Source: Candidatus Latescibacterota bacterium (lineage in GTDB: Bacteria > Latescibacterota > UBA2968 > GCA-2709665). From it: a DNA stretch of 64,000 bases. Position 1 is the first letter of the stretch; every line of letters starts with the position of its first letter. Positions 6,656-63,565 of this stretch are shown here, piece after piece. The stretch is from contig CAXXJS010000021.1 in assembly GCA_963662665.2 (NCBI GenBank), positions 32,001 through 96,000 of the forward strand, written 5' to 3'. The position numbers and the translations under genes were made by a program. The notes below the pieces were generated by a model. The model was not told the DNA's origin, did no database searches, and saw only the letters and a program-made list of their open reading frames with translations.

Positions 6656-7123
6656 ATGAGGTCAAGAGTCGATGTTGGAGACAACGGCAGCAAGGGGTCT
6701 CTGGTTGTGGAGGTCCCGCGCGGGACCTCCACAACCACGAGGCCGGATCCGGAGGTGCCTGCGCGTGCGAAGCGTCGCCGGTTCACCGCGCGGTATAAGC
6801 TTCGCATCCTGGAAGAGGCGGAGGCTTGCCGGGCTCCTGGTGAAGTTGGCGCGCTGCTGCGTCGCGAAGGGTTGTATTCCTCGCAGTTGACCCAGTGGCG
6901 TCGGGCGCGTCGTGAGGGGTCGCTCAAGGCACTATCCAAATCGCGGGGACCCAAGGGACGTCGCCGCGACGAGGTCGCCGTCGAGAACGAGCAACTGCGC
7001 AAGGAAAACGCCCGTTTGCGTCGACGGCTGGAGCAGGCGAACACGATCCTCGAGATCCAAAAAAAAGCCTCCGAGATCCTGGGCATCCCCCTGAACCGTC
7101 CGCCAAGCGACGACGACGTATGA
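6656..7123 (+). CDS. IS3 transposase OrfA (HTH)
   Basis: RRFTARYKLRIL, LLRREGLYSSQLTQWR, leucine-zipper-like tail; RBS GAGGAG; A8 slippery run at 7059-7066. Confidence 0.88.
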   Translation: MRSRVDVGDNGSKGSLVVEVPRGTSTTTRPDPEVPARAKRRRFTARYKLRILEEAEACRAPGEVGALLRREGLYSSQLTQWRRARREGSLKALSKSRGPKGRRRDEVAVENEQLRKENARLRRRLEQANTILEIQKKASEILGIPLNRPPSDDDV

Positions 7124-8133
7124 TGCGTGCGGCAGAACAACTGGCCCCAAAGGTCGGGTTGGCGGGGGCGTGTCGGGCGTTGGGTGTGGCGCGTGCTTCG
7201 GTCTACCGTGCGCGTAAACCATCGCGATCGGGTCCTCGTAGCGCGCGCCCCTCGTCGCCACGTGCGCTTTCCCAAACCGAGCGCGCTGCCGTGCTGGACA
7301 TCCTGCACGAGGATCGCTTCGCAGACCGGGCCCCAGCGGCAGTCTACGCCACGTTGCTGGAGGAAGGACGGTATGTCTGCTCGATCCGCACGATGTATCG
7401 GGTACTGCACGACGCAGGGGAGGTGCGCCAGCGGCGACACCAGCGGCGTCATCCACGTCTCGAACCACCCCGGTTGATGGCCAGTGCGCCCAACCAGGTC
7501 TGGACGTGGGATATCACCAGGCTGCCAGGACCCCGCAAGTGGGTGACCTTTCCCCTCTACGTCGTACTGGATCTGTTCTCCCGCTATGTCGTGGCCTGGA
7601 TGGTCGCCGCAAGGGAGAGCGCCACAAACGCAAAGCGGCTTATTGCCAACGCGTGCCAGAAGCAGGGCATTCAACCCGGACAGCTGACGCTGCACCAGGA
7701 CCGTGGCGCACCGATGACGGCCAAGACGTTTTCGCAGTTGCTGATGGATCTCGACATCCTGGCCAGCTACTCTCGACCCCGCGTTTCCGATGACAACCCG
7801 TATTCTGAAAGCCAGTTCAAGACGCTCAAATACACCCCATCATACCCCGAGCGCTTCACCGATCCGCAAGAAGCGCGCACCTATTTGCAGGCCTTCTTTC
7901 ACTGGTACAACACAAAACACCGTCACAGCGGCCTGGGATTGCACACCCCCGACACCGTCCACTATGGGCTGACACAGCAGATTCAGGCCGTCAGACAAAC
8001 GGTGCTGGACCAGGCTTATCATAAACACCCTGAACGATTTGTTAAGGGGCATCCTCGTCCGCCAAGCGTTCCGGACGAAGTGTGGATAAACCAACCCGCG
8101 AATACCATCGAATGCCATCAGTTACTTCACTAA
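7120..8133 (+). CDS. IS3 transposase OrfB (DDE integrase core)
   Basis: PNQVWTWDIT, LDLFSRY, HQDRG, DNPYSESQFKTLKY. Confidence 0.92.
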   Translation: MMRAAEQLAPKVGLAGACRALGVARASVYRARKPSRSGPRSARPSSPRALSQTERAAVLDILHEDRFADRAPAAVYATLLEEGRYVCSIRTMYRVLHDAGEVRQRRHQRRHPRLEPPRLMASAPNQVWTWDITRLPGPRKWVTFPLYVVLDLFSRYVVAWMVAARESATNAKRLIANACQKQGIQPGQLTLHQDRGAPMTAKTFSQLLMDLDILASYSRPRVSDDNPYSESQFKTLKYTPSYPERFTDPQEARTYLQAFFHWYNTKHRHSGLGLHTPDTVHYGLTQQIQAVRQTVLDQAYHKHPERFVKGHPRPPSVPDEVWINQPANTIECHQLLH

Positions 8134-22663: not shown

Positions 22664-23938
22664 ATGACTCGTCTTCGCTTTGTACATGCCGCTGATTTGC
22701 ATCTCGATAGCCCATTTGTCGGCATAAAGGCCGTCGCTCCCGACAATGTGTCTGGCGCGTTGCGCGATGCGACGTTCAGCGCCTACGAGAACATCGTCAA
22801 CCTGTGCATCGAAGAACGTGTAGACGCGTTGCTGGTCGCTGGGGACGTTTACGACGCTGCCGACCGGAGCCTGCGCGCGCAGCTCAAGTTCGTCGATGGC
22901 CTGAAACGGCTGGACGAGGCCGGCATACGGTCTTTCGTGTGCCACGGCAACCACGATCCGCTCAACGGATGGGAAGCTCAGCTGGAATACCCCAAAGGAT
23001 GTACGCGCTTCGGCGAGGAGGCGCAGGCCGTACCGGTTCTTGAAGACGATCCCGAACGCGCGGTCGTTCACGGAATCAGCTATCCGAAACAGAAGGTCAA
23101 CGAGAACCTCGCACTTCGTCTCGGCGCGGCAGATTCCAGCATGTTCTCGATTGGTCTGGTGCATGCCAATGTAGACAGCGACACGAAACACGTGAACTAC
23201 GCGCCCTGCTCGCTCGACGATCTTGAACGGTCTGGTATAGACTACTGGGCGCTCGGACACGTGCATACCAGGCAGGTACTCAGAGAACGGACCCCTACCG
23301 TCGTCTATCCGGGCAACCCGCAGGGCAGGCATCCGAATGAACCGGGCGCGCGCGGCGTGTATCTCGTCGAGGTGGATGAGGGTAACGACGTCCACCTAAA
23401 CTTCAGGACCGTGGATACGGTACGGTGGGCACAGGCCGACCTGGATGTCTCCCGAACAGACTCGGTACCGGAGTTGATTGAAGGACTCCACCAGCGCATC
23501 CAGGATTCTCTGGCCGAATCGGACGGCCGATCGGTCGTGCTGAGGATCAGTCTGTCAGGGCGGGGCGGTGTACACCGTTCGCTGCAGCAGCCGACGTTCA
23601 TTGAGGAGTTGATGGGCGAGTTAAATCGGGAATGGGCGGAGCGTTCACCGTTCGCGTGGTGTGAGCGCATCGTGGACGAGACGGCTGCGCCGTTCAACCG
23701 CGAGGATCGCATTGCAGGATCGGACTTCCTTGCCGAGGTACTTAAGACCGTGGATCTTGCGAAGGACGAAGGCGAGTTGCAAAACCGTCTTCGCAAAGGG
23801 CTTGCCGACCTTTATGAGCACCGCCGCTATCGCAGTCACCTGTTGGACCACGCTCCCGGTGATGACGACCTTGTCCTGCTGATCGACGAGGCTGAGACAA
23901 TTGTCGTAGACCTGCTTTCAGGGGATGAGGACGCATGA
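22664..23938 (+). CDS. yhaO: Mre11/SbcD-like metallophosphoesterase (YhaO family)
   Basis: ADLHLDSPF, AGDVYD, HGNHD, YWALGHVH, YPGNPQGR. Confidence 0.88.
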   Translation: MTRLRFVHAADLHLDSPFVGIKAVAPDNVSGALRDATFSAYENIVNLCIEERVDALLVAGDVYDAADRSLRAQLKFVDGLKRLDEAGIRSFVCHGNHDPLNGWEAQLEYPKGCTRFGEEAQAVPVLEDDPERAVVHGISYPKQKVNENLALRLGAADSSMFSIGLVHANVDSDTKHVNYAPCSLDDLERSGIDYWALGHVHTRQVLRERTPTVVYPGNPQGRHPNEPGARGVYLVEVDEGNDVHLNFRTVDTVRWAQADLDVSRTDSVPELIEGLHQRIQDSLAESDGRSVVLRISLSGRGGVHRSLQQPTFIEELMGELNREWAERSPFAWCERIVDETAAPFNREDRIAGSDFLAEVLKTVDLAKDEGELQNRLRKGLADLYEHRRYRSHLLDHAPGDDDLVLLIDEAETIVVDLLSGDEDA

Positions 23939-26900
23939 AGATCCGGGACATTCGCATCGACGGGTTCGGCCGGTTTTCGGACGCCCAATTCGGGCCGCTG
24001 GAGCGATCCTTAACCGTTTTCGTCGGCCCGAACGAGGCGGGCAAGAGTACCCTGCTGGAATTCGTCCGCAGGATACTTTTCGGATTTCCCCGCAAGAGCG
24101 GACGGGTAAACCCCTACCCGGCGTTGGGCGGGGGGCGGTACGGAGGTCGCGTTGCTATCGAGGGTTCTGACGGTCGAATGTGCGACTTACACAGAACGAC
24201 GGGGGGAAGTTTCAGGGGTGACGTGGTCCTGACTTCTGCATCCGGACAGCCCCTCCCGGAAAACGAACTTACGGCACTTCTGGGGAATCACTCGAGGGAC
24301 GTCTTCGAACAGGTGTTCGCATTCACGCTCGAAGACCTCTACAGCGACGAACTGTTAAACGACGAAAATGTCAATAGCCAGATATACAGTGCGGGCATGG
24401 GTGTGACCTTGCTCCCTGGCGCCGTCAGGTCGATCGAGTCAGGCCGCACAGACATCTTTCTGAAGGGAGGTAGCAGCCAGAAGGTCTATGAAGTCCGCGG
24501 TAGAATCGAGGAATTGGACGAAACGCTGCGAAGCGTCCGGGACAACGCGGCGAGATATGGGGAACTGACCGACCGCCGCCGGCAGATCGAGGATGAGCTT
24601 AGAAACCTCGCGGTGCGGCGACAAGAGATTCAGTCTCGGTATAACCATCAGGTCATGCTTCAGAATGCCTGGGGGAGCTGGATCGACCTGAATTCCGCCG
24701 AGGAAGATTTGGCTGAACTACCGGCCATTGACGATTTTCCTGCGGATGGATTGAATCGCCTGGAAGCATTACAAGAGCGCTTGAGCGCCGCTCGGAGGGA
24801 GTACGAGTCCGACGAACATCGGGTGTCGAAGGCCGAACGAGCAGCGGACGTCAGGATAGAGCATGAGGCTATTCTGACAAATTCGGCCGAAGTCCGTCGT
24901 CTGCAAAACGGCCGTACCGCGTTCGACGGGTCTGTAAGAGACCTTCCGGAACGCGAGACCGAGCTTGAAGGCCACACAAGAACGCTCGCCGACACCCTGA
25001 AAAACCTGGGGCCGGACTGGGACGAATGCCGGTTGGAAGGGTTCGATTTCTCTATAGCAGTCCGCCAGCAGATCTCTGAACACGGCGACCGATTGCGCAG
25101 CGCATCCGCCGGACTCACGGATGTCAAATCGGCGTTGGGCCAGGATACAGCGGCGTTAGAGGAAGCCAAGGACGCGGAGAGCAACGCCGGACGAAGACTC
25201 GAGGCCGCAGATAAACCACGCCTCAATCCAGACCGGATACGACAACACCGCCACCTTGTTCGGGCAACCAGGTCGCAGCTTGATGAAATCAGCCGACAGC
25301 GACAAAACGTGCTGAATCTCAAGAATCAGCTCAAGGGCGTGGAGGGCGCGGCGCAAGCGGAGGGCGCACGTGCCGGCAGCAGAACCGTCGCAGCCATCAG
25401 CTTCGTTATTGGACTCGCGCTTCTTATCGCAGGTGCGGCTCTGGGAGGCATGGCTTCCATCATCGGCGCGGCGGCCGGAATTGCGTTGGCAGGCTTAGGC
25501 ATTTACCTGTTCATGTCCGAAAATTTCCGACCGGTACTCGCAGGGAAATCCCCTCTTGCCCAACCGATTCGCGAGTCCATTCGCGACGCCGAAAGGGACA
25601 TAGATGATCGCCGGTCAAAGATGAAGCAGGATGCAGCCCCCCTTAACCTTAATGTGATCGATGAATCGTCACTCCTTTCAGCCGAACAGACGATCGACGA
25701 AGAGGAGGAATTGCTGAACGAGCGAACGCGCCTCACCGAAACGCTCGAGGACGCTAAGGAACTTGCAAAGCAGCGACAGATCCGCACTGACAGAACTGCC
25801 ATTGCCGTCACGGAAGCAAAGGGTCGACTCAACGCAGCACGGCTCGAATGGCGGAAGTGGGCAATGTCTCGCGGCCTGTCTGATACCTTTACGCCTGAGA
25901 CGGCCGACGTGCTGCAAGGGCAGGTCGAACTCGGTCGGAGCCGGCTCGAAGACGTGAGGAGTTGGCAGCAGCGCATCGAGGCCATCCAGAAAGACATCGA
26001 CGAATACATCGACGCTGTTGAGCCGCTTGCGGCCGCGTTCGACGTCCCGTTTGATCGAAACGACTCACGCGTCGTAGCTGCTGCCGCCGACAGGCTGGTG
26101 GAGTTATTGGAAGAGGTACAGGAAGACGTCCGGAAGCGGACCGACACGGAGGCTGAACTGGAAGACGCCAGGCGACAATTGAAAGACCGTAAGGGCGATC
26201 TACGAAAGGCAGAGGAGGAGCTTGAACAATTGCTCCATTCGGGCGGCGCCGAGGACGTGGAAACGTTCCGCGTGCGGGCAGATCTTTTCGACCGGCGGGC
26301 GAGACTGGATGACAATGCCCGCGCCGCGCACGACAGGCTTCGCCGCCTCAGCGGGACCGGCGAACTACTGGAATCGTTGAAATCGGACCTTCAAGAGACG
26401 AATCCTGAGTCCATCGCAGACGAGTTAGCCACACTCGAGCATGAGCGGGATTCTACCGACGCTCAACGTGAAATGCGTTCGGCCGAACAGGGCGAAATCC
26501 GTAAGGGGCTGGATGGGCTCGTCGGTGAAGAAGAGTCATCGCGGCTGCGGATGGAACGGAACGTGCTCCTGGAGCAACTCAGGGGCCACGCACGTGATTG
26601 GACCCGGCTTACGATCGCCCGGAACCTGCTCGCCGAAGCGCGCCGAAGGTTTGAGCGCGAGCGGCAGCCCGGCGTTATCCGTCACGCTGAGCGCTTCTTC
26701 GCTGCGATCACCGATGGACGGTACCGGCAGGTTTATGCTCCCCTTGGTGAACAGACGATTACGGTGACGGACGCCGACGGGCAGACGAAGCAGCCGTCGG
26801 AACTGAGCCGGGGTACGCGGGAGCAACTGTTCTTGTCGCTCCGTTTCGGGCTGATCCGCGAACTGGGGGAGCGGACGGAGCCGCTCCCCGTCGTCGTGGA

Positions 26901-27075
26901 CGAAATCCTGGTCAACTTCGATCCCGATCGCGCCCTTCGAGCCGCCGTTGCCTTCACGGAGTTGTCCAAAACCAACCAGGTCCTGGTCTTTACCTGCCAT
27001 CCGACGGTCGTCGAACTGTTCCGGAATGCGGCATCCGAGGCGGACGTCAATGAACCGCAGGTCATTGAAATATAG
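23935..27075 (+). CDS. yhaN: Rad50/SMC-like ATPase with internal transmembrane hairpin (YhaN family)
   Basis: GPNEAGKST, coiled coils, two hydrophobic helices, LSRGTREQL, VVVDEILVNFD, FTCH; ATGA overlap with yhaO. Confidence 0.88.
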   Translation: MKIRDIRIDGFGRFSDAQFGPLERSLTVFVGPNEAGKSTLLEFVRRILFGFPRKSGRVNPYPALGGGRYGGRVAIEGSDGRMCDLHRTTGGSFRGDVVLTSASGQPLPENELTALLGNHSRDVFEQVFAFTLEDLYSDELLNDENVNSQIYSAGMGVTLLPGAVRSIESGRTDIFLKGGSSQKVYEVRGRIEELDETLRSVRDNAARYGELTDRRRQIEDELRNLAVRRQEIQSRYNHQVMLQNAWGSWIDLNSAEEDLAELPAIDDFPADGLNRLEALQERLSAARREYESDEHRVSKAERAADVRIEHEAILTNSAEVRRLQNGRTAFDGSVRDLPERETELEGHTRTLADTLKNLGPDWDECRLEGFDFSIAVRQQISEHGDRLRSASAGLTDVKSALGQDTAALEEAKDAESNAGRRLEAADKPRLNPDRIRQHRHLVRATRSQLDEISRQRQNVLNLKNQLKGVEGAAQAEGARAGSRTVAAISFVIGLALLIAGAALGGMASIIGAAAGIALAGLGIYLFMSENFRPVLAGKSPLAQPIRESIRDAERDIDDRRSKMKQDAAPLNLNVIDESSLLSAEQTIDEEEELLNERTRLTETLEDAKELAKQRQIRTDRTAIAVTEAKGRLNAARLEWRKWAMSRGLSDTFTPETADVLQGQVELGRSRLEDVRSWQQRIEAIQKDIDEYIDAVEPLAAAFDVPFDRNDSRVVAAAADRLVELLEEVQEDVRKRTDTEAELEDARRQLKDRKGDLRKAEEELEQLLHSGGAEDVETFRVRADLFDRRARLDDNARAAHDRLRRLSGTGELLESLKSDLQETNPESIADELATLEHERDSTDAQREMRSAEQGEIRKGLDGLVGEEESSRLRMERNVLLEQLRGHARDWTRLTIARNLLAEARRRFERERQPGVIRHAERFFAAITDGRYRQVYAPLGEQTITVTDADGQTKQPSELSRGTREQLFLSLRFGLIRELGERTEPLPVVVDEILVNFDPDRALRAAVAFTELSKTNQVLVFTCHPTVVELFRNAASEADVNEPQVIEI

Positions 27076-31462: not shown

Positions 31463-32791
31463 CTATCGGTGGTGGAATCCGTGGTTAATATCCAGCCGGA
31501 CGCCTATTACCAATGCGTTCTCGAGTCCCGGATCAGCGCCCGGATTGAGGATGTATTGGAGGTCCGGCTGGACCTGCAATATGTCGCTGATCCGAAGAAC
31601 ATACGTGAACTCAAATGCGGTCTCATGGCTTTCCGCGCCGGCAGCAGCGCGAAAATCCGCGCTGCACCGCGCCATGGCCATGGATATCCCAACCTGGTCG
31701 TCCGGCCTGTGCGGGACGAATCCGGACATCACCATCCCGGCGCCGAAGTACCTATCGAAGGGATTGAGCGCGCCGTTGGCGGTTCCTAAGCGAATGAAAG
31801 CCGATGTGCTCCGTCCGTCGGCGTCCGTGTTGGTCGCGCCTTCGGCAAATCCATACCATCCGGCATTCCCGTCCCGGCGCACCGGATTACCCGTGGCGTC
31901 GGTCTCTCGAATCGCTTCGAAGTCGGCGCTATAAGAGAATGCGCCGAGACCCATCCGCCAGGCGCCGAAGAATTCTCGTGTGTACTCGAAGGCATGTAAG
32001 ACGCCCTCGCGGCTGCTCAGCTTGACTGCGGTGGCCGACGGATTATCGGGGTCGCCGGGTACCGCATCGAGCAACGCATATCGCACCAGATTGTTTCCGG
32101 AATTCCACTCGAGTCGCGCGGTCAGCGACGTCGCCGGAAAAATCGACGGACCGTTTTCTCCGGTCTGGGAATAGGTGGGTATGATTCCGTGAGAACTGTT
32201 CAGGAATAACGCCGCCGAATCAACGGCGTCGAATTCGCTGTTGAGATCGTAGAGTCCGAACTTCAGGTTCAGCCGTTCCGTAAAGAGATGTTGGTACCAG
32301 AACTCGTAAAGTCGGAACGCCTGCTCCACGTCGATGTTGGAGACAACCTGCGCGTCGCCGGGGTATCGATCCGAAAACGTCGACGCGTTGTTCCAGAGCA
32401 GATACGCGAACAACGTCCCGCCCCCACTTCCAAATATCCGCCCAAGGTCGAACGTGAGAATCGCATCGACGTTCTGCAGATAGGCCGAGCCGTTCCGGAT
32501 GCCGCCGGAGGCGTTTCGAAGCAAATCCGCGACATACCCGACTTCGGCGGAGACTGCTTTGCCGCCTGCCTCCGTTTCAGCGCGCACGGGGACGGGGACC
32601 AAGCCGATCATCAGCATACAGACAACCAGACGGAGCAATCCGGCTTTCGATCCAACAGTGGCCGTTTTCCGTCCATACCAGGAGGCGGCAATGAATCGAC
32701 GCGGAACAGCGTGTTTCAAGGTGCGCTTGTTCCGGTGCTTCTGATGCGCGGCGGATGAATTCGGAGTCATGATCTCAGCGATCGTCCTCAT
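31463..32791 (-). CDS. oprB: Carbohydrate-selective porin, OprB family
   Basis: GDAQVVSNID, LYEFWYQ, GLYDLNSEFD, QPDLQYILNPG; true start probably downstream of 32791. Confidence 0.82.
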   Translation of the reverse strand: MRTIAEIMTPNSSAAHQKHRNKRTLKHAVPRRFIAASWYGRKTATVGSKAGLLRLVVCMLMIGLVPVPVRAETEAGGKAVSAEVGYVADLLRNASGGIRNGSAYLQNVDAILTFDLGRIFGSGGGTLFAYLLWNNASTFSDRYPGDAQVVSNIDVEQAFRLYEFWYQHLFTERLNLKFGLYDLNSEFDAVDSAALFLNSSHGIIPTYSQTGENGPSIFPATSLTARLEWNSGNNLVRYALLDAVPGDPDNPSATAVKLSSREGVLHAFEYTREFFGAWRMGLGAFSYSADFEAIRETDATGNPVRRDGNAGWYGFAEGATNTDADGRSTSAFIRLGTANGALNPFDRYFGAGMVMSGFVPHRPDDQVGISMAMARCSADFRAAAGAESHETAFEFTYVLRISDILQVQPDLQYILNPGADPGLENALVIGVRLDINHGFHHR

Positions 32792-32877
32792 TAAACCGCT
32801 CAGCTGAAATTCCCGGCGGAAGCCGCGTGTACCGGTCCACGACCAGGTGTCTGAAGGCCCGTTTTGCGAATATTGCC

Positions 32878-33792
32878 TTAAAACGTGAGTTCGAAGTTGC
32901 GCACGCTGTAACCCGCGAATATACCGTACCCGTTCTCAATATTGCTGTGAATTCTCACCGGTTCGGCAAAAGGGTTGTCGTCCGTGGTATCATGTAGGAG
33001 GGCGCTCTTCAGGTGTCTGTAATATGCTTCGCTGATGTAGCGGACCTGGACCCAGATTACACGCTCCAGGCTCGCCTCAACAAAAAGGTCAACGGACGAA
33101 AGGTCGATTTGGTGCGACTCTCCGTCAAACAGGGCGTCGCTGAAAAACGGCTCGGAACCCACAAACGGCTCGACGCCTTCGAGAACAGGATCTTCGATCC
33201 GATTGTCGGCGATGATGGATGGATCTCTCGTGGAAAAGCGCAGGTCGCGCCTTCCCGATCGATCTGGAGCAATGACCCGAATCTGATATCGGTTTTCCTC
33301 GCCGGGTGGATCCTGAATCTGAAGGGTGATCCGGAAATCCGTTATCGTGGTCACGCCGGGTCCCCCGGGAGCAGGAACGGAGGTCTCGACGCGATACGAT
33401 TTGATGGACGTCGGTACGGGTGGGGGCGCGCTGTCAGTCGCATGGACGGTCTCGAAGCCCGGCGCTGATACCCGCAGCGAGTAGGACTTGCCCGATTGCA
33501 GGGGTTTTTCGCTTGCATACACCCTTTCTCGCTGGAGAAAGAGCAGCCGGTCGATGATCCGGCTATCTGAAAGCAGTTCCACGCTGGCGCCGGTAATCAG
33601 GCGTTCGGGTCCGGGAGCGGGGTCCTGGATGCCTACGGACCGACTGACGGAAGCCGCCCAACCGCCGTCCGGCGTAAAGAATGCCTTAATCACCAGTCGA
33701 GGCGTGTGTTCGGGCAATTCCGGGTTGATGATTAGTTCGCACGCGGTGAATGCGATTGCGAAGATCGTAATTGTGATGCATTTCTTCTTCAT
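32878..33792 (-). CDS. DUF4249-family lipoprotein
   Basis: Lipobox FTAC; QDPPGEENRY, FSDALFDG, EPVRIHSNIENGYGIFAG. Confidence 0.82.
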   Translation of the reverse strand: MKKKCITITIFAIAFTACELIINPELPEHTPRLVIKAFFTPDGGWAASVSRSVGIQDPAPGPERLITGASVELLSDSRIIDRLLFLQRERVYASEKPLQSGKSYSLRVSAPGFETVHATDSAPPPVPTSIKSYRVETSVPAPGGPGVTTITDFRITLQIQDPPGEENRYQIRVIAPDRSGRRDLRFSTRDPSIIADNRIEDPVLEGVEPFVGSEPFFSDALFDGESHQIDLSSVDLFVEASLERVIWVQVRYISEAYYRHLKSALLHDTTDDNPFAEPVRIHSNIENGYGIFAGYSVRNFELTF

Positions 33793-33808
33793 TGAGGCGC
33801 GCCGGTGT

Positions 33809-36268
33809 TCAGAATTTGAACCGGTAACTGATCCACGGCAAAACCGGAAACAGGGTCACCTGTTTGGCCTGGTACTCCCTGGAATCCGTCTGGGGGTCAC
33901 GGTAATCGTCGAAATAGATGAAATAGGGGTTCTTTCGATTATATGCGTTGTAGGCGCCCACGCGGAATCCGTGCCTCGACCAGTCGAAGTTGAACCCCAG
34001 GTCAATACGATGGTAGGCGGACATTCGGAAGCCGTTGCGTTGTTCGTAGATTCTGGTCTCAAAGGGCAGCACGCGAGGAGTCCAGAGTTCATGACCGCCA
34101 ATTGATCCCCTTACGTACTCGTCATAGTATCTTGCGACGGGTAGGGTCACCGCATTACCGGTTCCGTACACCCAGTTTATCGAGGCGCTCGTGATGCGCG
34201 ACAGTTGATGGGTCAGGACCACGGCCACGTCGTGCCGGCGGTCGTAGCGAAAGGGAAAGGCGCGGCCTTCATTCAGTTCGGTGAAACGGCGCCTGGTCCA
34301 TGATAGCGTGTACCCGACCCAACCCGCTGTGCGGCCGCGCTTTTTCTGCAGAAACAGTTCGACGCCGTAGGACCATCCACGCCCCGTTTCCACCTTGTCC
34401 TGCCAGTCCTGCTGCTCGCCGAACCCCGCCAGAAAGGTCGCGCCTTCCCGGTACTCGATCAGGTCGGTCATCGTTTTGTGATAGGCCTCCACGCTGAATT
34501 CGTACTGTCCCTTTTTCAATGTGCCCGCCAGGCCGAGGCCGTACTGGCGAGACCCCTCGGGACGCGCGCGTTCGGTGGCAGGAAGCCACAGGTCGGTCGG
34601 GAGCCCTATGGTGCTGTTGGAAAGCAGATGAATATACTGGCGCATCCGGGCGTAGGACGCTTTAAGGGCCCACCGCGGATTCAACAGAAAACGCGTCGAA
34701 ACGCGGGGTTGCAGGGATCCGAAGCGCGAGTTGCCCACAGAGAAGCCGGAGGCGTGCAGCCCCACGTTGGCGCTCAACCGTTTTGACAGTCGGACATCGT
34801 CCTCCAGGTACAGGCCGATCTCTACGGCGTCCGTCGCCCGGGCGGCGCCAAGTGTTGTATCCTCCGGGGCGCCGCCTGCGGGGTTGAATCTGTACTGTGC
34901 CGCTCCGGGGCTGTACGTGTGGTAGGTGCCGTTGCCGCCAAAGCGGATATAGTGGGCCGGATTGGGAATGTAGTCGAGATCCAGCTTAAGGCCGAAGTCG
35001 CGGATGCCTGAGTGGTAGCGCAGGCTGAGCGTCTCGGTCTCGTGGACGTCCCCGTCACTTGTGGCGGATCGATCGTCGATATTCGAAGTAAGCTTATAGC
35101 GGCTGAAGATCGTGGTGAGGTTGCCGAAGAGCCGGTTGCTGAAGAGGATATTCCAGCGCAGCGTCGAAGTGAAATTGCCCCAGCCGAAATTCGCCGACGT
35201 CGTCTCTTCGCCGCGATAGGCGCCGGAGGCGTAGTCGTCCTGGATGTCACTCCAGAAACGGTCGTCGCCGCCGTAAAGGCTCAGGAAAACACGGTTTCGG
35301 GGCGACAGGACATGGTTCAACTTGGCATTGATATCGTAGAAATAATAGCCGCCCCGCTCGTTGGGATCCAGAAAGGGGCGGATCAGCAGATCGATATACG
35401 TCCGCCGTGCCGAAACGATGAATGACGTCCGGTCCTTGCGTATCGGACCCTGCAGGGTCACCTGGGAAGCCACAAGACCGATGGAGCCCTCTACCTCGAA
35501 CGCCTGCATGTTGCCGTCCTTCATGGCTACCTCCAGGACGGAAGAGAGGCGCCCGCCGAAACGTGCAGGAAATCCTGCCTTTGTGAGTTGTACGTTCTTG
35601 ACGGCGCTGGTATTGAAGACAGAGAAAAAGCCGAAGAGGTGGGAGGCGTTGTACACCGGGGCGTCGTCGAGCAGGATGAGATTCTGATCCGGACCGCCGC
35701 CCCGGACGTAAAGGCCGCTCATCCCCTCGGCGCCGGACTGGACGCCCGGAAGAAGCTGCATGGTTTTCATCAGATCGACTTCGCCCAGGAGGACGGGCGC
35801 CTTCTCAATCTGGCTGACCGGGACATCGACAACACCCATCCGTGTCTGCTCCTGGATCGGATCCACCTGTTCGGCCTTTACCTCTATGGCTTGCATTTCC
35901 AGGGCAAGCGGCTTCAGGGCGAATTCCACGCGAATGTCGCGTTCCAGGCGGATTGACAGGGTGTCGCTCCGAAACCCGATGTAGGAAACGACAATCTGAA
36001 GCGAATCCGCCGGCAGGGTCAGGCTGAAGAAGCCATAGCGATTTGTCGTGGCGCCTTGCTGTAGGGTGGGTTCGTACAATGAGGCGCCGATCAGCTGCTC
36101 GCCGTTCGAGGCATCCGAGACGTGCCCGCTGATGGTGTGTTCCGCCGGGGGCTGGGCGTTGGCCCCGAAGACACAGCCAAACCAGAAGATCGACATCCAT
36201 GCGACGCGCGTCTTCCGAAACGCCCGATTCAGGTTGACGGCCGCGAGGTGAGTGAAGGATGAGTGCAT
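33809..36268 (-). CDS. TonB-dependent receptor with N-terminal carboxypeptidase-regulatory-like domain
   Basis: TISGHVSD..GEQLIGA; QLLPGVQ; YVRGGGPDQNLILLD; C-terminal YRFKF. Confidence 0.9.
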   Translation of the reverse strand: MHSSFTHLAAVNLNRAFRKTRVAWMSIFWFGCVFGANAQPPAEHTISGHVSDASNGEQLIGASLYEPTLQQGATTNRYGFFSLTLPADSLQIVVSYIGFRSDTLSIRLERDIRVEFALKPLALEMQAIEVKAEQVDPIQEQTRMGVVDVPVSQIEKAPVLLGEVDLMKTMQLLPGVQSGAEGMSGLYVRGGGPDQNLILLDDAPVYNASHLFGFFSVFNTSAVKNVQLTKAGFPARFGGRLSSVLEVAMKDGNMQAFEVEGSIGLVASQVTLQGPIRKDRTSFIVSARRTYIDLLIRPFLDPNERGGYYFYDINAKLNHVLSPRNRVFLSLYGGDDRFWSDIQDDYASGAYRGEETTSANFGWGNFTSTLRWNILFSNRLFGNLTTIFSRYKLTSNIDDRSATSDGDVHETETLSLRYHSGIRDFGLKLDLDYIPNPAHYIRFGGNGTYHTYSPGAAQYRFNPAGGAPEDTTLGAARATDAVEIGLYLEDDVRLSKRLSANVGLHASGFSVGNSRFGSLQPRVSTRFLLNPRWALKASYARMRQYIHLLSNSTIGLPTDLWLPATERARPEGSRQYGLGLAGTLKKGQYEFSVEAYHKTMTDLIEYREGATFLAGFGEQQDWQDKVETGRGWSYGVELFLQKKRGRTAGWVGYTLSWTRRRFTELNEGRAFPFRYDRRHDVAVVLTHQLSRITSASINWVYGTGNAVTLPVARYYDEYVRGSIGGHELWTPRVLPFETRIYEQRNGFRMSAYHRIDLGFNFDWSRHGFRVGAYNAYNRKNPYFIYFDDYRDPQTDSREYQAKQVTLFPVLPWISYRFKF

Positions 36269-50768: not shown

Positions 50769-51812
50769 CTAAAGGATTTGAACACCGGAAACCGGATCGA
50801 TGACAACTTCACCCACGACGTAGCCTGTCTCTCCGTTTCGATTCAACTGTTCGATCGCATTTTCAGCCTGACCGGGGGGAACGACAAGCACCAGGCCCAG
50901 ACCCATGTTGAACACACGAAACATCTCGTCGGTTTCAATATAGTCGCCCATTTTCTGCAACAGGTTGAATACGGGCAATTCGGGCCATGTTCCCCGGTAT
51001 ACGCGCGCGCCGAGCCCATCGGGAAGGGTGCGCGGCAGATTGTCCACAAGCCCTCCGCCGGTGATGTGGGCCATCCCCCTTACCTCCACGGCTTCCATAA
51101 GGTTGAAGGCCGATGATACGTAACTCCGGTGAGGGGCCAGCAAGGTATCGCCGATCGTGCCGCCGAGTTCGCCCAGATGGGTGTCGACGGTCCATCCTGC
51201 GGTTTCGAAGAAGAGTTTGCGCGCCAGGGAAAATCCGTTGGTGTGCAGTCCGGACGACGGCAGACCGATGAGCTTGTCTCCCTGCTGAACCCGTGTACCG
51301 TCCAGAATCTCTTCCCGGTTGACAATACCGACAATAGTACCCGCCAGGTCGTATTCGCCGTCGGCGTAGAAGTCCGGCATTTCCGCCATTTCCCCACCCA
51401 GCAGCGCGCATCCGCAGGCTTTGCATCCGTTCGCGATTCCCTCAATGACGGCCTCGGCCACGACGGTGTCGTGTTTACCCATGGCCAGGTAGTCCAGGAA
51501 AAAGAGCGGGCGCGCGCCCTGTACGAGTATGTCGTTGGCGCAGTGGGCCACAAGGTCCGCACCGACCGTATTGTGGACATCCGTCATAAAGGCAATCTTG
51601 AGCTTCGTGCCGACACCGTCCGTTCCCGCCACCAGGACGGGATGCCGATAGGCATCCCATTGCGGCGCGAAGAGACCGCCGAACCCGCCGATATCGGTGA
51701 GTACTTCAGGACCGAATGTTGATCGTACCAGCCTGGAGATGCCTTTCTTGGTCCGACTGGCGCTTTCGATATCCACGCCGGCGGCGGTATATGCGCCTGA
51801 CTTTCCCCTCAT
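50769..51812 (-). CDS. purM: Phosphoribosylformylglycinamidine cyclo-ligase
   Basis: AGVDI, DGVGTKL, PLFFLDY, SSGLHTNG, AHITGGG, FNMG. Confidence 0.97.
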   Translation of the reverse strand: MRGKSGAYTAAGVDIESASRTKKGISRLVRSTFGPEVLTDIGGFGGLFAPQWDAYRHPVLVAGTDGVGTKLKIAFMTDVHNTVGADLVAHCANDILVQGARPLFFLDYLAMGKHDTVVAEAVIEGIANGCKACGCALLGGEMAEMPDFYADGEYDLAGTIVGIVNREEILDGTRVQQGDKLIGLPSSGLHTNGFSLARKLFFETAGWTVDTHLGELGGTIGDTLLAPHRSYVSSAFNLMEAVEVRGMAHITGGGLVDNLPRTLPDGLGARVYRGTWPELPVFNLLQKMGDYIETDEMFRVFNMGLGLVLVVPPGQAENAIEQLNRNGETGYVVGEVVIDPVSGVQIL

Positions 51813-51916
51813 CGGGCTACCTTCCATACTTCGTCTCAAAATACACGGGGAGGAGGGACAGGATAAGATACGTGATTTTCAATCCACCTGAGTATAAGGC
51901 GGCGTTTATGCAGGGC

Positions 51917-56759: not shown

Positions 56760-56795
56760 AAAAGAAAAAACGCGCTGAAATCAGCGCGTTTTTTC
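56760..56795. terminator. Bidirectional intrinsic terminator, ending the redox operon
   Basis: GAAAAAACGCGCTGA-AA-TCAGCGCGTTTTTTC with A/T tracts on both sides. Confidence 0.8.
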
Positions 56796-56816: not shown

Positions 56817-57803
56817 TCAGGGTACGCTTTTACCGAAGTTCCTGGCGAATTCCAGAAAGTCCGGAAAGTCGACCAGGCCGCTCCCGTCCAGGTCGAAGGC
56901 GGGATTGTCGGTGTTGAAAGCCTGGGCGAAGGCGATGAAGTCGCTGAACCCGATTTCGCCGTTATTGTCAAAGTCGGCCCGGGGATTGACGGAGACAACA
57001 ATGGCCGTTCCCGAAATTGCGACCGTGACGCTGCCGTTTTCCGGGTCGTCGCTGGAAATGGTAATGGTGCCGGAGAATGGGCCGCCCTCCGCGGGCGTGA
57101 AGGTGATGTCGACATTCGCACTGTCGCCCGGTGCGACCATAAGCTCCGTCAGGCTGAACGTGACGCCCTCGAGGTCGGACGCCAGATCTGTGATGCTGAG
57201 GTCGTCTCCGCCTGTATTTTTCACGACGAGGGTAACGGTCCTGGTTTCGCCGGCCGGAACGTCATCCCCGAAGTCGAGCGATGGAGTGGGGAGGCTGATT
57301 GCAGGCGGCGCGACGGTCAGCAATTCCCGGATACTCGTCGCCGCGGCGCCGAGACCCGAAGCGCCGCGCCCGATGTGACGGATGATCCCTTCCCGGTCCG
57401 CGACCAGCAACGTGTGGGTCCCGTGAGAACCCCTGATATTGCCTGCCTGCAGCAGGAGGGGAAACGTGATCGTGGATACTGACTGAAAACCCCTGAGCTG
57501 AGCCGGACTGCCATTGTAGATGTCAAGTCCCAGGACTGCAAAGCCGTCATCATCCTGGAACGCCTTCCAGATCTGCTGTTCTATGGACGGACCCGCCGCC
57601 CGGCAGGTGGGTCAGTTATGGCCCAGGTAATATAGAGCCAGAACACTGCCCTCGTAATTCGCAGAGCCATAGGTTTTCCCGTCCAGCCCAGTAAGTGAGA
57701 ACGTCGGTACCGCGTCACCGACACTCTGTGCATTCGCGGGTCCGAGGGGGTAAAACGCCAAGGCCAGTAGGAATACGACGCATGCAACGATTCGACCCAT
57801 CAC
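56817..57803 (-). CDS. Secreted selenoprotein: AhpC/TlpA-like domain (UxxC) + Ig-like (ASH/choice-of-anchor D) + twin EF-hand/dockerin-like domain
   Basis: ORFs 57612-57803 and 56817-57410 share one frame separated only by TGA at 57612-57614; read-through gives YYLGHN-U-PTCRAAGP, 329 codons including the stop. Confidence 0.85.
57591..57608 (-). promoter_or_regulatory. Candidate bacterial SECIS element
   Basis: Hairpin ACCUGCC-GGGC-GGCGGGU starting 3 nt after the UGA. Confidence 0.55.
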
Positions 57804-57834
57804 AGTCCTCCTTTGAGAAAATGTGTCGTCTGCG

Positions 57835-59418
57835 TCAGAAATAGGTTTTCAGACGCATCTCAAGGCCATTGAACGGCAACACCAGATAGCATGTCCCCGA
57901 TGTACACGCGGCGCCGCCTCGTCTGCGGCCGGCGAATACGAAGGCTTCGTATCGATCGAGAAATGCGACGTTGAGATTGACCGACAGCCAGGAACGTGTC
58001 CCGGTCTCCACCCGGTCCGGTGTGGCGCCGTCGTCCACTTCAAACGGATCGTTGGTACGATCCAGTATGAGGGCGCAGCCCACGCCCGAGGGATGCTGGA
58101 AGGAAAACTGGGTAAAGACGTCCAAGAACCCCGGCTCGGTTCGAGGCTGCCTGGCCGCGCGCCGGACCTGAAAATCCAGGCCCGCGACAGATCCGCAGGG
58201 CGTCGTGGATTCGATTCCCGCGCCGGCGATTCTGTGCTTCCGAATCCCCTTCAGTTCGTTTTTTCCCCAATCGACGAACAGGTTGGTGGAAATCGCGTGG
58301 TCCCCGCCATCAGACGGAAGGTCGACCTCCACGCTGAAATACCGCTCGTTGAAGGTCGTTGTGAAGCCGGGCGCGAGTTCGTTCTCACCCTTGCTTACAT
58401 TTGCCGTCAGCGTGCCCAGACCGAATATAGAATAGGTGGCTTCCGCCTGATAGCCCTTTTCCGTATCGGCAATCAGGGCATGGGTGGCCCGGTTGAGCAG
58501 GACGGCCGAGTGTTCGCGGACAAGGGATGGTGGATCGTTGAAACTGAAGGCGAATTTCTCGTAATCCTTGTATTCCAGGCTCAAGCCCAGGTTGGAAATT
58601 CCGGCGTTGGCCGAAATATAGAGAGCGCTGCCGTCCACGTGCACGTCTTTCAGCCCTGCGTATTCGGCGTAGACGGTTGCATAAGCTTCCGGAAGGCCGG
58701 ATGCTTCGATTGCGGGCGTGACGTCGAATTCCAGAAAACCCGACCATGTTCGGGTGGAGTCAAACCTGGAGGCGTGATGGTTGACGGCGGTGACACCGGT
58801 CTTCACTTGCTTGTGAGGCCGCAGCGAGACCTCGCCTCCGAGAATCCAGTCGTCACGTCGCGGTACATCACGAAGCGGATTACCCACCCGCACCGCAGGC
58901 GGAATATCACTAAATACGGGTCGCCCGATCAGGGCCTTTGCCTCGGCCCGAGACCCCGCCCAGGTGGCAATGCCACCCTCCAGGTCCCGGGAAGGCGAAT
59001 AACGCCGTCGGTATTGCCCGCTCTCCAGAATAACTCCGGGCAGATCGAAGGCCCTGATCGTGATGCCACGACCCAGGATGGCGTAGTAGTTGCCCGCAAC
59101 CAGCTCGACGGATCCCTGCGTCCAGCGCGCGTGTTTCTGGGAGATATGCACGATCTGGTATTCAACCTGTGACAGCGGCGAGCCCGGAGCCGTGCTGCGC
59201 CATGCATTGAAGATTTCCGCCCGGAATCCGGCCTGCAGACCGTGCCGTGTGTAATCGAGGTCGAACTGCTCATAGAGTGACGAAACCGCCAGCGAGTCCG
59301 AGCCCGGTACGCGTCCCCGCTGGATTTCGGTCAGGCTGGATGCGGTCACCTGAGCCACGGCCGGTTTCGAGGTCGGCAGCAGTAGGAGCATTGTCAGGCT
59401 ATTGATCAGCGCTCGCAT
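57835..59418 (-). CDS. DUF6029-like outer-membrane beta-barrel protein
   Basis: Signal peptide; GNYYAILGRG, EYKDY; C-terminal RGGAACTSGTC..PFNG..YF; start at 59418 inferred. Confidence 0.72.
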   Translation of the reverse strand: MRALINSLTMLLLLPTSKPAVAQVTASSLTEIQRGRVPGSDSLAVSSLYEQFDLDYTRHGLQAGFRAEIFNAWRSTAPGSPLSQVEYQIVHISQKHARWTQGSVELVAGNYYAILGRGITIRAFDLPGVILESGQYRRRYSPSRDLEGGIATWAGSRAEAKALIGRPVFSDIPPAVRVGNPLRDVPRRDDWILGGEVSLRPHKQVKTGVTAVNHHASRFDSTRTWSGFLEFDVTPAIEASGLPEAYATVYAEYAGLKDVHVDGSALYISANAGISNLGLSLEYKDYEKFAFSFNDPPSLVREHSAVLLNRATHALIADTEKGYQAEATYSIFGLGTLTANVSKGENELAPGFTTTFNERYFSVEVDLPSDGGDHAISTNLFVDWGKNELKGIRKHRIAGAGIESTTPCGSVAGLDFQVRRAARQPRTEPGFLDVFTQFSFQHPSGVGCALILDRTNDPFEVDDGATPDRVETGTRSWLSVNLNVAFLDRYEAFVFAGRRRGGAACTSGTCYLVLPFNGLEMRLKTYF

Positions 59419-59938
59419 CGGCCTTCGCCCCTTCGTCGGCGCCAGCATCCGGAAAAAGCGCCTCAACGGCCGTCAGCAACACTTCGGCGTTTTTCGAATT
59501 GTATCCGACCTGCCTCAGCGCAATCTCACCGTCCGGGGTGATCAGAAGCGTCGTCGGCAGGACGTTTACCTGCATTCGCCGCATCACCGCGCTGTCGGAG
59601 TCGAGGGCGACGGGGAAATTGACCCGTCGCGCCCTGAGAAAGGGTTTCACCCGGTTCTGCCCACGCGGACCGTCCACGTTGACGCCAAGAACCGTGAGTC
59701 CGGATTTGCCGTATTTCTCGTGAATCTTCTGGAGCTTGGGCATTGCCTTGACGCAAGGTTTGCAGTAGGTCGCCCAGAAATCCAGAAGCACCGGCCCGTT
59801 TTTCAGCAGGGTCTTCAGGTTGACCCGTTCGCCCTGAAGGTTCCGGAGGTTGAAGTCTGGGGCTGAGGCGGCGTTCACAGTTGCGACGCCCAGGGTAATC
59901 GAGGCTGCAAAAGCCAGCGATTGAAATAGCGATTTCAT
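59399..59938 (-). CDS. TlpA-family thiol:disulfide oxidoreductase, exported
   Basis: Signal peptide; APDF, DFWATYCKPC, LPTT. Confidence 0.92.
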   Translation of the reverse strand: MKSLFQSLAFAASITLGVATVNAASAPDFNLRNLQGERVNLKTLLKNGPVLLDFWATYCKPCVKAMPKLQKIHEKYGKSGLTVLGVNVDGPRGQNRVKPFLRARRVNFPVALDSDSAVMRRMQVNVLPTTLLITPDGEIALRQVGYNSKNAEVLLTAVEALFPDAGADEGAKADASADQ

Positions 59939-62113: not shown

Positions 62114-63565
62114 TTAATTACGGAAAGCGAAGTCGATGGGTCTGCCCTGGGCGAACTTCGCCTCGACGTTGCTCAAGCCGAAGAGGGTGGCCGAAAGGTC
62201 CAGCAGGGAGAGGGGTTCGGTTACTCGCAGGCCTGCAGGCATACCGGGCCCCACGAGCAGCGCACGACCGCCCGCAGCATCCAGTACAGCCAGGGTCGTA
62301 CGGTTCCGGTACCGGTGGTGTCGCTGCGCGATCTTCCAGAGCTGTTGGATAGCAATGCGGCAATCCGGGCCGTCGGTGAGTTGCAGAACCATGAGATCGG
62401 GCTTTGCTCTGGGCACGCAAGCGATGGCCAGAGAAGCCAGGAAGCCGCTTTTCAGTTCCAGATTCTTGTCGGACGAAACGAGGGTCCTGACGATAAGACG
62501 CGAGAGGACCTTGTTCTTGACGGTTTTGGTGATTTTCAGCTTTTTCGGATTGAGTGTCGGGAAGACGACGTTCTCGATGAACGCTTGCGATCTGCCTTCC
62601 GACCTGGCTTCGTCCAGTACAAGGCGGATCCGCTCCGCTGCGCCTGACATCGACGAAGCCCGCACGCAGAGTGCGCCGTATTTCTTGTATTTCCTTAGCG
62701 TGCTTCGCGCCGGCGGGGCGTTGTCGTCAATATAGAAAGCCAGCGTACGGGTGCGTGTCCTGTCTTTAAGTGCGCGATTGTGATATTCGAAGAGTGTCGG
62801 ATGTGCGAGCTTGTCGCCCGTCAGCGCGTCGTCGCGTCCCGTCAGCAGGGTGGCCAGCCATTGTCTTGACGGATTGGGGGCGGGCGCGGTCTGCAACAGA
62901 GTACCCTGAGAGAGCAGGCTGTCGTTGAGCGTTGAACCGGATGTTCCGTATTGCCCAGGCATGATTGCAATCGCGAGAAGCGCCGGCGGGAAGTCCACAT
63001 CTCTATAGACGAACCGGTTGATCGCAGTTTTGATTCTATCCCTCTGTTCGGGCATTAACTGAATATCGGAACTCTGGCGCCGCCTCCTGGCGGTGTCGCC
63101 GCGTTGCCCGATTCCCCCTCGCTGCCCGGGGCCCAGTTGCTCTCCCGTCCCGCGACGTTGCCGGGGACCAGGTCGCCGTCCGAAGATGCCCGCGATCGCC
63201 TCGCCGAAAGCCGCGCGCAAATCCCCATCCGAAGATTCCCCTGCTTTCTCGAAAAAGAGTTTGAATCGCTCCTGTTCCTGCGGAAAGAATCCATCCCAGT
63301 CTGTCATCGAAGTCAATATATAAGCCCTGATCGGGAGGGGTAGTCGGCTGAACGTCTCCTCGTTACCCTTGACGAGGTCGTAAGCTCCGGATGGGAGGTC
63401 GGAATACAGGTCGTTTCGAATTGGACTGAGATCGACGCCGCCTCCGCCTCCTCGCCTCCCTCCTCCTCTTCTTTGTGCAAGCGTGTCCTCACAGGTAAGC
63501 AAGAGGACAAGAATGGTTGCTGAAAGCCCCACTGCACCGTGAGAAAATCTGAGGAATTCAGGCAT
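62114..63565 (-). CDS. Exported hypothetical protein with R/G/Q-rich segments and degenerate alkaline-phosphatase-like C-terminus
   Basis: Signal-like N-terminus; PTLFEY, LLVGPG, LDLSATL. Confidence 0.6.
   Translation of the reverse strand: MPEFLRFSHGAVGLSATILVLLLTCEDTLAQRRGGGRRGGGGGVDLSPIRNDLYSDLPSGAYDLVKGNEETFSRLPLPIRAYILTSMTDWDGFFPQEQERFKLFFEKAGESSDGDLRAAFGEAIAGIFGRRPGPRQRRGTGEQLGPGQRGGIGQRGDTARRRRQSSDIQLMPEQRDRIKTAINRFVYRDVDFPPALLAIAIMPGQYGTSGSTLNDSLLSQGTLLQTAPAPNPSRQWLATLLTGRDDALTGDKLAHPTLFEYHNRALKDRTRTRTLAFYIDDNAPPARSTLRKYKKYGALCVRASSMSGAAERIRLVLDEARSEGRSQAFIENVVFPTLNPKKLKITKTVKNKVLSRLIVRTLVSSDKNLELKSGFLASLAIACVPRAKPDLMVLQLTDGPDCRIAIQQLWKIAQRHHRYRNRTTLAVLDAAGGRALLVGPGMPAGLRVTEPLSLLDLSATLFGLSNVEAKFAQGRPIDFAFRN

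Follow-up and report, generated by a model that had tools for sequence, protein, structure and literature searches.

A conserved TlpA-DUF6029 barrel gene pair and a linked exported selenoprotein in Latescibacterota and related bacteria: a candidate envelope redox module

We analyzed a 64,000-nucleotide stretch of DNA from a Candidatus Latescibacterota bacterium (assembly GCA_963662665.2, contig CAXXJS010000021.1, positions 32,001 to 96,000), hereafter the window, and identified in it a unit of 3 minus-strand genes encoding a TlpA/ResA-like thiol-disulfide oxidoreductase, a predicted outer-membrane beta-barrel of the DUF6029 family, and a putative exported selenoprotein. The TlpA-like gene (59399..59938) has an ATG start and encodes 179 aa with a signal peptide and, at residues 59-62, a CKPC active site (59753..59764). 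Its 3' end is overlapped by 20 nt by the ATG of the barrel gene (57835..59418), which encodes 527 aa with a signal peptide and approximately 24 strands, and in which translation and alignment place the motif CTSGTC, containing Cys505 and Cys510, at residues 505-510 (57889..57906). The barrel stop is separated by 31 nt from the selenoprotein gene (56817..57803), which has AGGAGG ahead of its GTG/ATG start and gives a read-through translation of 328 aa plus a stop with a single in-frame TGA at codon 64 (57612..57614; HN-U-PTC). A strong intrinsic terminator lies 22 nt beyond the selenoprotein stop (56764..56795, read from 56795 to 56764), with a 14-pair stem, a 4-nt loop, and a T-run. The original prediction, made from this DNA alone, had described 3 tightly packed exported genes closed by a terminator, with 1 redox motif each (CKPC in TlpA, CTSGTC at the barrel C-terminus, and UPTC in the third protein), and the coordinates, the gene order, the motifs, and every other detail of the unit that could be checked were correct. 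As the same arrangement recurs in related genomes, it is not a product of chance.

A locus scan matched 307 stretches, of which 296 encode a barrel relative; the best 80 were kept and 78 loci were analyzed, with taxon labels that are mostly Latescibacterota and include some Gemmatimonadota, Eisenbacteria, Planctomycetota, and Cytophagia. At all 78 loci, a TlpA ortholog adjoins the barrel gene, lying upstream in the same orientation at 51 loci and being transcribed divergently at 27, and its CxxC motif is kept throughout (CKPC in 75 loci and CQPC in 3). The genes flanking this pair differ between clades, so the linkage is more than inherited synteny. The third gene, referred to below as the redoxin gene, lies within 6 kb at 54 of the 78 loci (51 with TGA, 3 with Cys only), either following the barrel gene, convergent to it, or sharing an operon with a TlpA gene that is transcribed divergently; at 2 more loci, the flanks are too short to judge its presence. 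Synteny of all 3 genes had been expected, and that expectation stands for TlpA and the barrel at every locus, with the redoxin gene near at 54 of 78. Where present, the redoxin always carries UxxC or CxxC, as had been anticipated, and the pairing of TlpA with DUF6029 that the original prediction named for Bacteroidota holds at 1 locus labelled Cytophagia (L044). The only 3 loci with a Cys-only redoxin (L045-47) are also the only 3 with a CQPC TlpA, a coincidence that may reflect shared ancestry or co-adaptation.

The TlpA-like protein contains the motif WATYCKPC and matches the Pfam families AhpC-TSA (88 bits), Redoxin (73 bits), and Thioredoxin_8, all above cut-off. Against NCBIfam, it scores 103.7 bits with ResA (NF002854, cut-off 170) and 50.2 bits with the rhizobial TlpA equivalog (NF047696, cut-off 230); because it lies below both cut-offs, we describe it as TlpA-like and not as an ortholog of rhizobial TlpA or ResA. 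A profile search of solved structures placed ResA (1st9, E 6e-32) and an uncharacterized thioredoxin-like protein nearest, with TlpA (1jfu) at E 2e-17 and the Etrx structures 2yp6, 4hqz, and 4hqs also among the sequence matches. Residues C59, P61, and C62, together with P128 of the cis-Pro loop, are invariant in the TlpA alignment (A8), and the signal peptide, ending VNA-AS in the window, has like N-termini in 29 of 29 aligned orthologs as judged by eye. The W-C-x-P-C site, the cis-Pro loop, and the export signal are together those expected of a TlpA/ResA-like thioredoxin-fold protein.

Assignment of the second protein to DUF6029, proposed in the original prediction, was upheld by Pfam (PF19494, 50.1 bits against a cut-off of 27); the same family is carried by 90 of 91 barrel homologs, and the nearest Atlas clusters are 100% DUF6029. 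The AlphaFold2 (AF2) model has approximately 24 strands (pLDDT 86.1, pTM 0.79), and the chain, whose C-terminus reads ...GGAACTSGTCYLVLPFNGLEMRLKTYF, ends in ...KTYF with a C-terminal aromatic residue; with its signal peptide, the protein is modeled as an outer-membrane beta-barrel. Where any of the 91 homologs has a Pfam domain, PF19494 is the sole one, and neither these nor the best 150 listed homologs, all of at most 564 aa, include a TlpA-barrel fusion, the "longer" length class falling outside that search. A Foldseek comparison with the PDB returned outer-membrane barrels only, all generic, the best being 24-stranded ushers (TM-scores 0.43-0.48), with AlgE also matched; a template-based function was rejected for this reason. 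One rival reading makes the barrel a polysaccharide export porin like the plug-less Wzi barrels. It draws on the AlgE match and on an HHpred resemblance of DUF6029 to Wzi-barrel homologs, for which the accessible part of a published study suggests a role in polysaccharide secretion (PMC9603273). However, the universal neighbor is a thiol oxidoreductase, Pfam detects no OPX/Wza, Wzx/Wzy, glycosyltransferase, or capsule-synthesis gene among the 24 recurrent neighbor clusters of the 78 loci, and no OPX or capsule genes lie within 20 kb in the window, which leaves the porin very improbable.

Near the C-terminus of the barrel, Cys505 and Cys510 stand in the context G-x-R-R-G-G-x-A-C-T-S-G-T-C-Y and are invariant in 26 of 26 aligned sequences that share 25-91% identity. 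A barrel profile search over 1.84 billion representatives gave 1604 matches at E <= 0.001, and we inspected the best 150: C-x4-C occurs within the last 45 residues in 136 of them, 119 of which have exactly 2 Cys after residue 25, and 13 of the 14 lacking the motif stop before that part of the profile. Conservation of the pair, a test set beforehand, was therefore found both in the alignment and in 136 of the 137 representatives whose sequence extends to the C-terminus. Secondary structure assigned by DSSP to the AF2 model runs as strand 490-499, break 500-501, strand 502-506, turn S507-G508, strand 509-513, break 514-515, and strand 516-526, and from this layout Cys505 and Cys510 would sit opposite one another at the tip of a hairpin kinked off the barrel wall. 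Separately, the barrel signal peptide ends A-Q (window 59350-59355), with Q23 in at least 90% of rows of the barrel alignment A1, and many redoxins do likewise (window 57725-57730); the mature barrel and many redoxins would then begin with Gln. Exported Bacteroidota proteins are known to carry an N-terminal Gln after the signal peptide, which is cyclised.

A complex of barrel residues 22-527 with TlpA residues 24-166 was predicted from one 29-row alignment per protein, both drawn from the same loci, and gave a score of 0.83, with 0.01 for the best of 3 controls. The score mark is reached by 58 of 80 solved complexes and by 2 of 110 mismatched pairs, a calibration that is rough here as custom alignments were used. 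At least 86% of contacts agree between runs, and partner pLDDT is at least 83. The model supports TlpA-barrel binding, short of demonstrating it, and no solved complex of this TlpA-in-barrel kind that the prediction could have reproduced is known to us. TlpA is predicted to sit in the periplasmic mouth of the barrel, the periplasmic side being assigned from DSSP of the AF2 barrel model, and to contact S507-G508, the turn between the 2 cysteines. The other barrel contacts fall at lumen-facing strand ends and most of the short turns (23-29, 53-62, 100-105, 154-156, 200-206, 232-250, 269-282, 326-336, 364-379, 405-411, 441-445, 485-491, and 524-526) and in the conserved loops 111-128 and 295-304, the latter an invariant NDPPSLVREH stretch. 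On TlpA, 50 of 143 residues on all faces make contact, including 56-60 (ATYCK), 63-64, 67, and 123-126 beside the cis-Pro, as well as the ortholog-specific DGPR..KPF stretch (88-100). In this model, TlpA would be inserted with its active site inward and the Cys hairpin would reach down to it as a lumenal finger, a topology drawn from secondary structure. The barrel residues in contact are more conserved than the rest, with 31 of 5000 random sets reaching the observed mean. The original prediction had asked whether the CTSGTC segment lies within reach of its partners: TlpA is predicted within reach of its turn (S507-G508), but Cys505 and Cys510 themselves are not among the contacts.

Because every TlpA has a CxxC, the barrel Cys pair is near-invariant, and the predicted geometry brings the two together, we tentatively favor a redox couple between the TlpA CxxC and the barrel pair, at a likelihood a little short of even. 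The same model can be read as a secretion pore, in which the usher-sized barrel would be the translocon or anchor for a thioredoxin-fold protein (TlpA, or the redoxin in clades where it lacks a type IX secretion system [T9SS] tail) and the complex would capture a translocation or plugged state. This would suit the best structural matches, since 24-stranded usher pores carry folded domains and have plugs, as well as the placing of TlpA largely inside the lumen with the contacts given above and the absence of a T9SS tail from the window's redoxin. Against it, the usher matches are generic with low TM-scores, most other clades give the redoxin a T9SS sorting domain of its own, and it is not obvious what an invariant Cys pair and a CxxC would do in a pore; we hold it to be quite improbable, if less so than the porin.

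With the first 165 residues of the third protein as the tblastn query, the 78 loci gave 61 matches, in which the codon aligned to the window's TGA is TGA in 56, TGC in 3 (L045-47), and TGT in 2 (L011 and L032); a motif scan added 2 further TGA copies (L044 and L049). The matches continue through the TGA at 29-90% identity with coding conservation on both sides, and the context G-[YHF]-x-U-x-x-C is conserved around it. Database gene calls of relatives begin after the TGA, with a coverage of 50-73% in 43 of 44 listed. U64 aligns with the first, attacking Cys of the CxxC in 2ls5. A UGA conserved together with its flanking coding sequence and replaced by Cys at the same position in homologs is the pattern of a bacterial selenoprotein, and on this sequence evidence the in-frame TGA is a selenocysteine (Sec) codon. 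A whole-protein homolog search with the third protein returned C-terminal fragments only and no full-length relative of the Cys form.

A hairpin resembling a selenocysteine insertion sequence (SECIS) follows the codon in every clade, within columns 13-31 after the UGA, with sequences that differ and registers that differ slightly. In the window (57585..57601, minus strand, 11-28 nt after the UGA), it has 6 pairs and a 5-nt G-rich loop, and all 14 of the 14 relatives that share its register can pair columns 14-19 with columns 25-30, with a GC/AU exchange at 1 pair. Pair counts were made in 3 sub-alignments comprising 48 of the 55 sequences of alignment A2; the rows left out are 5 duplicates or near-duplicates of used rows and L074 and L075, which by eye have another register, and A2 itself excluded 1 N-containing copy and the duplicate L038. 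In A3, 94.7% of cells are paired (slid controls 25.8-49.2%), with a two-sided exchange at 1 pair (UA 14, GC 8); in A4, 100% (36.9-59.5%), with a two-sided exchange at 1 pair (GC 11, AU 3); and in A5, 80% over 8 pairs and 49 of 50 cells in the inner 5 (25.0-45.0%), with a two-sided exchange at 1 pair (GC 6, AU 3). Folding of the window sequence alone after the UGA was not significant (z -0.78, with 39 of 200 shuffles folding as well), and Rfam returned no match over the whole window at gathering thresholds. The structures derive from the very sequences in which pairs were counted, few events are independent, the window fold is non-significant, and Rfam is silent; we therefore rate the SECIS evidence as supportive and not decisive. 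An AIRS-family gene at 50769-51839 was considered as SelD and rejected, with 400 bits for PurM and 29 bits for SelD, and ARAGORN found no tRNA in the window.

The read-through product has a signal peptide and a thioredoxin-fold domain at residues 27-163 (57315..57725), with AhpC-TSA (PF00578) at residues 28-119 (38.8 bits, cut-off 26) and Redoxin (PF08534) at 27.1 bits (cut-off 26.6). The AF2 model (pLDDT 88.5) places U64 immediately before helix 65-82, Foldseek gives 2ls5 and ResA as best matches, and G61, U/C64, C67, E75, P115, and D136 are invariant in the redoxin alignment (A9). With PF00578/PF08534 and UxxC at the CxxC position, the protein fits, by sequence, the Prx-like/Redoxin families of UxxC selenoproteins. 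Next comes an immunoglobulin-like (Ig-like) domain of the choice-of-anchor D or HYDIN type at residues 168-268 (57000..57302), recognized by Pfam (HYDIN/DUF1573/ASH, residues 168-266), by NCBIfam (choice-of-anchor D, 49 bits, cut-off 45), and in the AF2 model, and then a dockerin- or EF-hand-like tail at residues 276-324 (56832..56978), with EF-hand_1 at 26.5 bits (cut-off 25.4), dockerin_GC at 24.8 bits, below its cut-off of 29, and 2 short helices (286-295 and 313-322) in the model. A relative at L042 scores 39.6 bits with Dockerin_1 (cut-off 22.9). Redoxins of other clades, Cys forms included, have a tail made up of an acidic linker plus a T9SS type A sorting domain, with TIGR04183 above cut-off in 4 of 4 with that tail. 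Neither Pfam nor NCBIfam finds a TIGR04183 or PF18962 C-terminal sorting domain in the window's redoxin, which is for this reason not classed as T9SS cargo. The tails thus vary by clade and are all of an exported kind (T9SS sorting domain, dockerin, Ig-like), and by analogy with the roles of such tags in other bacteria they support the surface location first proposed for the third protein, which would be at the cell surface or extracellular.

Several loci carry variations on the redoxin. Four close relatives have a tandem second selenoprotein gene (L002 8657-9634, L005 8586-9617, L008 8551-9585, and L035 8650-9627) with U-DLC or U-NLC, and at L032 (7576-10690) the gene is triplicated into 2 U forms and 1 Cys form without the Ig domain. 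L038 and L039 lie on the same chromosome as 2 TlpA-barrel-redoxin copies with identical tblastn coordinates and near-identical scores, and the redoxin frame ends early in both (126 aa). At L071 (3121-5040), a beta-lactamase-family domain (PF00144) stands between the Sec-redoxin domain and the T9SS sorting domain.

An envelope system of this kind could also handle thiophilic metals or metalloids. The barrel would then be a channel for Cu, Hg, Se, or similar, bound by the Cys pair and the surface selenol, and TlpA would keep the pair reduced, much as rhizobial TlpA keeps the copper sites of ScoI and CoxB reduced. A TlpA-type reductase with a two-Cys client is present, Sec has a very high affinity for soft metals, and many charged residues of the lumen are invariant (R66, E68, E282, K284, E302, H303, E320, and E520). 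However, the recurrent neighbors, which are TilS, FtsH, FolP, a GFO/IDH/MocA oxidoreductase, hydrolases, and regulators, include no metal chaperone, P-type ATPase, RND pump, or Sco-like gene, and an ordinary UxxC thioredoxin-fold site with a cis-Pro loop typifies disulfide exchange and not metal binding. We regard metal handling as improbable.

Taken together, the 3 genes look like an undescribed means of carrying thiol chemistry across the outer membrane. Our tentative interpretation, to which we give slightly less than an even chance, is a conserved envelope redox module with a TlpA-barrel outer-membrane complex as its core and, in part of the lineages, a surface Sec-redoxin. In it, the TlpA-like reductase would enter the periplasmic mouth of the approximately 24-stranded barrel with its active-site face first, as a plug supplied in trans, and would meet the kinked C-terminal barrel hairpin that folds into the lumen and bears Cys505 and Cys510, with which it would swap disulfide and dithiol. 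The third member, in about two thirds of the sampled lineages including this one, would be a redoxin with selenocysteine as the attacking residue, sent beyond the outer membrane with a dockerin/Ig tail here and a T9SS sorting domain elsewhere. The most likely use would be the transfer of reducing equivalents out of the periplasm, by way of the lumenal Cys hairpin, to the surface selenoenzyme or to substrates in the outer vestibule. Computation shows the genes, the Sec codon, the conservation, the linkage, and the export tags; the docking and the contact with the hairpin tip come from the predicted model; and an exchange of redox equivalents, the direction it would take, and any tie to the selenoprotein are inferred only.

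Several points weigh against this module. At 22 loci forming 1 sub-clade, with barrels 47-51% identical to that of the window, no redoxin gene lies within 6 kb, and TlpA and the barrel occupy the same position before TilS, FtsH, and FolP, which argues that the core works without an adjacent selenoprotein. In P0230, a full-length representative, Y and F replace both cysteines, as would be expected if the pair formed a structural disulfide that can be dispensed with. Neither the recurrent neighbors of the 78 loci nor the window includes a gene for a CcdA/DsbD-type donor. The contact list holds neither Cys505 nor Cys510, the prediction output does not specify the TlpA partners of residues 507-508, and the TlpA contact residues are no more conserved than others (2429 of 5000 random sets reach the observed mean). 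All of the evidence is in silico, and the 78 loci were retrieved partly by a pattern that contains the Cys motif, so we do not count them as evidence for conservation of the pair.

The first 3 of these points also fit a maturational or structural explanation, in which the pair is a disulfide stapling the lumenal hairpin, TlpA is a folding or isomerisation factor dedicated to the barrel or an inert plug, and the Sec-redoxin works on its own at the surface, as an antioxidant or disulfide reductase linked to the other two through shared regulation only. The joint loss of both cysteines in P0230, the position of the pair across a tight beta-turn, which is classic for a disulfide, the 22 loci with no redoxin gene nearby, and the missing donor all speak for it, and LptD maturation likewise requires periplasmic oxidoreductases and the plug LptE. 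An inert plug, on the other hand, would not need the CxxC that is kept at all 78 loci, the docking turns the active-site face of TlpA into the lumen, and the redoxin gene stays within 6 kb in 3 gene orders, from which we argue for a functional tie of the redoxin to the module. We consider the structural explanation unlikely, although it is the strongest of the rivals. The fuller scheme of the original prediction, a thiol/selenol relay through all 3 proteins, is supported in part: of the refuting conditions set for it, each one that could be run turned out favorably, and the Cys pair, the TlpA linkage, and the predicted docking agree with it; the redoxin-less loci, P0230, and the lack of a nearby donor do not. 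In its strongest form, a trans-outer-membrane dithiol/selenol relay would be the outer-membrane counterpart of DsbD, running from the cytoplasm through TlpA and the Cys hairpin to a docked surface UxxC selenoenzyme, which we hold to be possible but doubtful, and clearly less probable than the redox module itself.

To our knowledge, no route is known for thiol-based reducing power across the bacterial outer membrane, and we found no published description of a TlpA-DUF6029-selenoprotein module in a search outside which most subscription journals and supplements fell. If the module is real, DUF6029, a domain without known function that has 1604 representatives at the above threshold, would gain a function and a partner, a thioredoxin-fold enzyme would be a new kind of barrel plug, and a widespread, uncharacterized class of UxxC selenoproteins would be placed at the cell surface and given a supply route. 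The module would also be relevant to the ways in which uncultivated bacteria from sediments and sponges handle extracellular disulfides, oxidants, and sulfur or selenium species. If the relay is true, Latescibacterota, Gemmatimonadota, Bacteroidota, and their relatives would be able to reduce disulfides or peroxides catalytically in the extracellular space. The conservative reading, in which TlpA serves 1 barrel alone, would still provide a testable first handle on DUF6029.

Other genes near the module and elsewhere in the window were also annotated. A 483-aa protein with Gly/Arg-rich stretches (62114-63565, minus strand) and without a Pfam or NCBIfam match has its gene 2 genes upstream of TlpA at 31 loci (cluster 5). 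An SDF-family symporter beside TlpA at 13 loci was considered as a cystine importer and dropped, its nearest NCBIfam models being GltP/DctA, below cut-offs; a MsrA gene near the module at 15 loci was dropped as a periplasmic MsrA, as its likely start gives no signal peptide. Window positions 1-27075 resemble a defense island. Among its genes are HEC-01 A (1-612, cut by the window edge) and HEC-01 B (617-1300), one for a HmaC-like DUF499 ATPase (1346-4666), one for an rve integrase (7120-8133), one whose 1505-aa product matches PDC-M54A weakly (8395-12912), one for an AriA/GajA-like ATPase (12966-14708), and a pair resembling SbcCD (22664-27075). At 14961-20258, approximately 37 kb from the module and unrelated to it, methyltransferase domains occur together with glycosyltransferase family 2 domains in a single ORF of 1765 aa. 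A Bacteroidota-style nutrient uptake cluster on the minus strand (31463-36268) comprises, in a row, genes for an OprB-family porin, a DUF4249 protein, and a TonB-dependent receptor that bears a CarboxypepD_reg N-domain.

Among known systems, the accessible text of a 2026 review lists Prx-like thiol:disulfide oxidoreductase and Redoxin families as predicted bacterial selenoproteins (PMC13188914). The window's redoxin, set beside these families by description, shares the PF00578/PF08534 fold with UxxC and differs in its export tails and its fixed TlpA and DUF6029 neighborhood; the terms T9SS, dockerin, surface, periplasm, and secreted do not occur in the accessible text of that review. The DUF6029 polysaccharide porin proposal (PMC9603273, as far as its accessible text goes) concerns the same Pfam family, but the neighborhoods here hold redox genes and no OPX genes. 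Surface TlpA/ResA-like proteins are described in the accessible part of a study of Streptococcus pneumoniae, where Etrx1/2-MsrAB2 protects against extracellular oxidants (PMC3914529); such monoderm systems lack a barrel and selenocysteine and have no outer membrane to span. In porin-cytochrome conduits of the MtrCAB type, too, electrons cross the outer membrane by way of a redox protein enclosed in a barrel, and Shewanella, according to the accessible part of another study, needs these conduits for the reduction of an extracellular disulfide (DTNB) (PMC10986466). Such conduits use heme chains and one-electron transfer, whereas the module here has no heme motifs and would use a two-electron thiol/selenol exchange.

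In architecture only, the module recalls LptD-LptE, a very large barrel whose lumen is filled by a separately encoded soluble or lipoprotein partner and which has functionally important cysteines near the barrel C-terminus whose state depends on periplasmic oxidoreductases. There is, however, no sequence or specific fold relation to LptD (Foldseek matches being generic), no beta-jellyroll domain, and no link to lipopolysaccharide genes, and the plug here would be a redox enzyme with an intact active site. In the pathways from DsbD/CcdA to TlpA, ResA, or CcmG, reducing power passes by successive dithiol/disulfide exchanges, and the DsbD Cys pair lies within a membrane protein where it can be reached from both sides. 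The likeness to these pathways lies in a secreted thioredoxin-fold WCxPC protein with a dedicated two-cysteine client. Here, an outer-membrane barrel is presumed to be the client, in place of a helix bundle of the inner membrane or a soluble protein of the periplasm; the prediction puts TlpA inside that client, the distal partner would be extracellular and use selenocysteine, and no DsbD/CcdA gene is linked. In function, the module would work like the DsbD-type pathways, moved 1 membrane outward.

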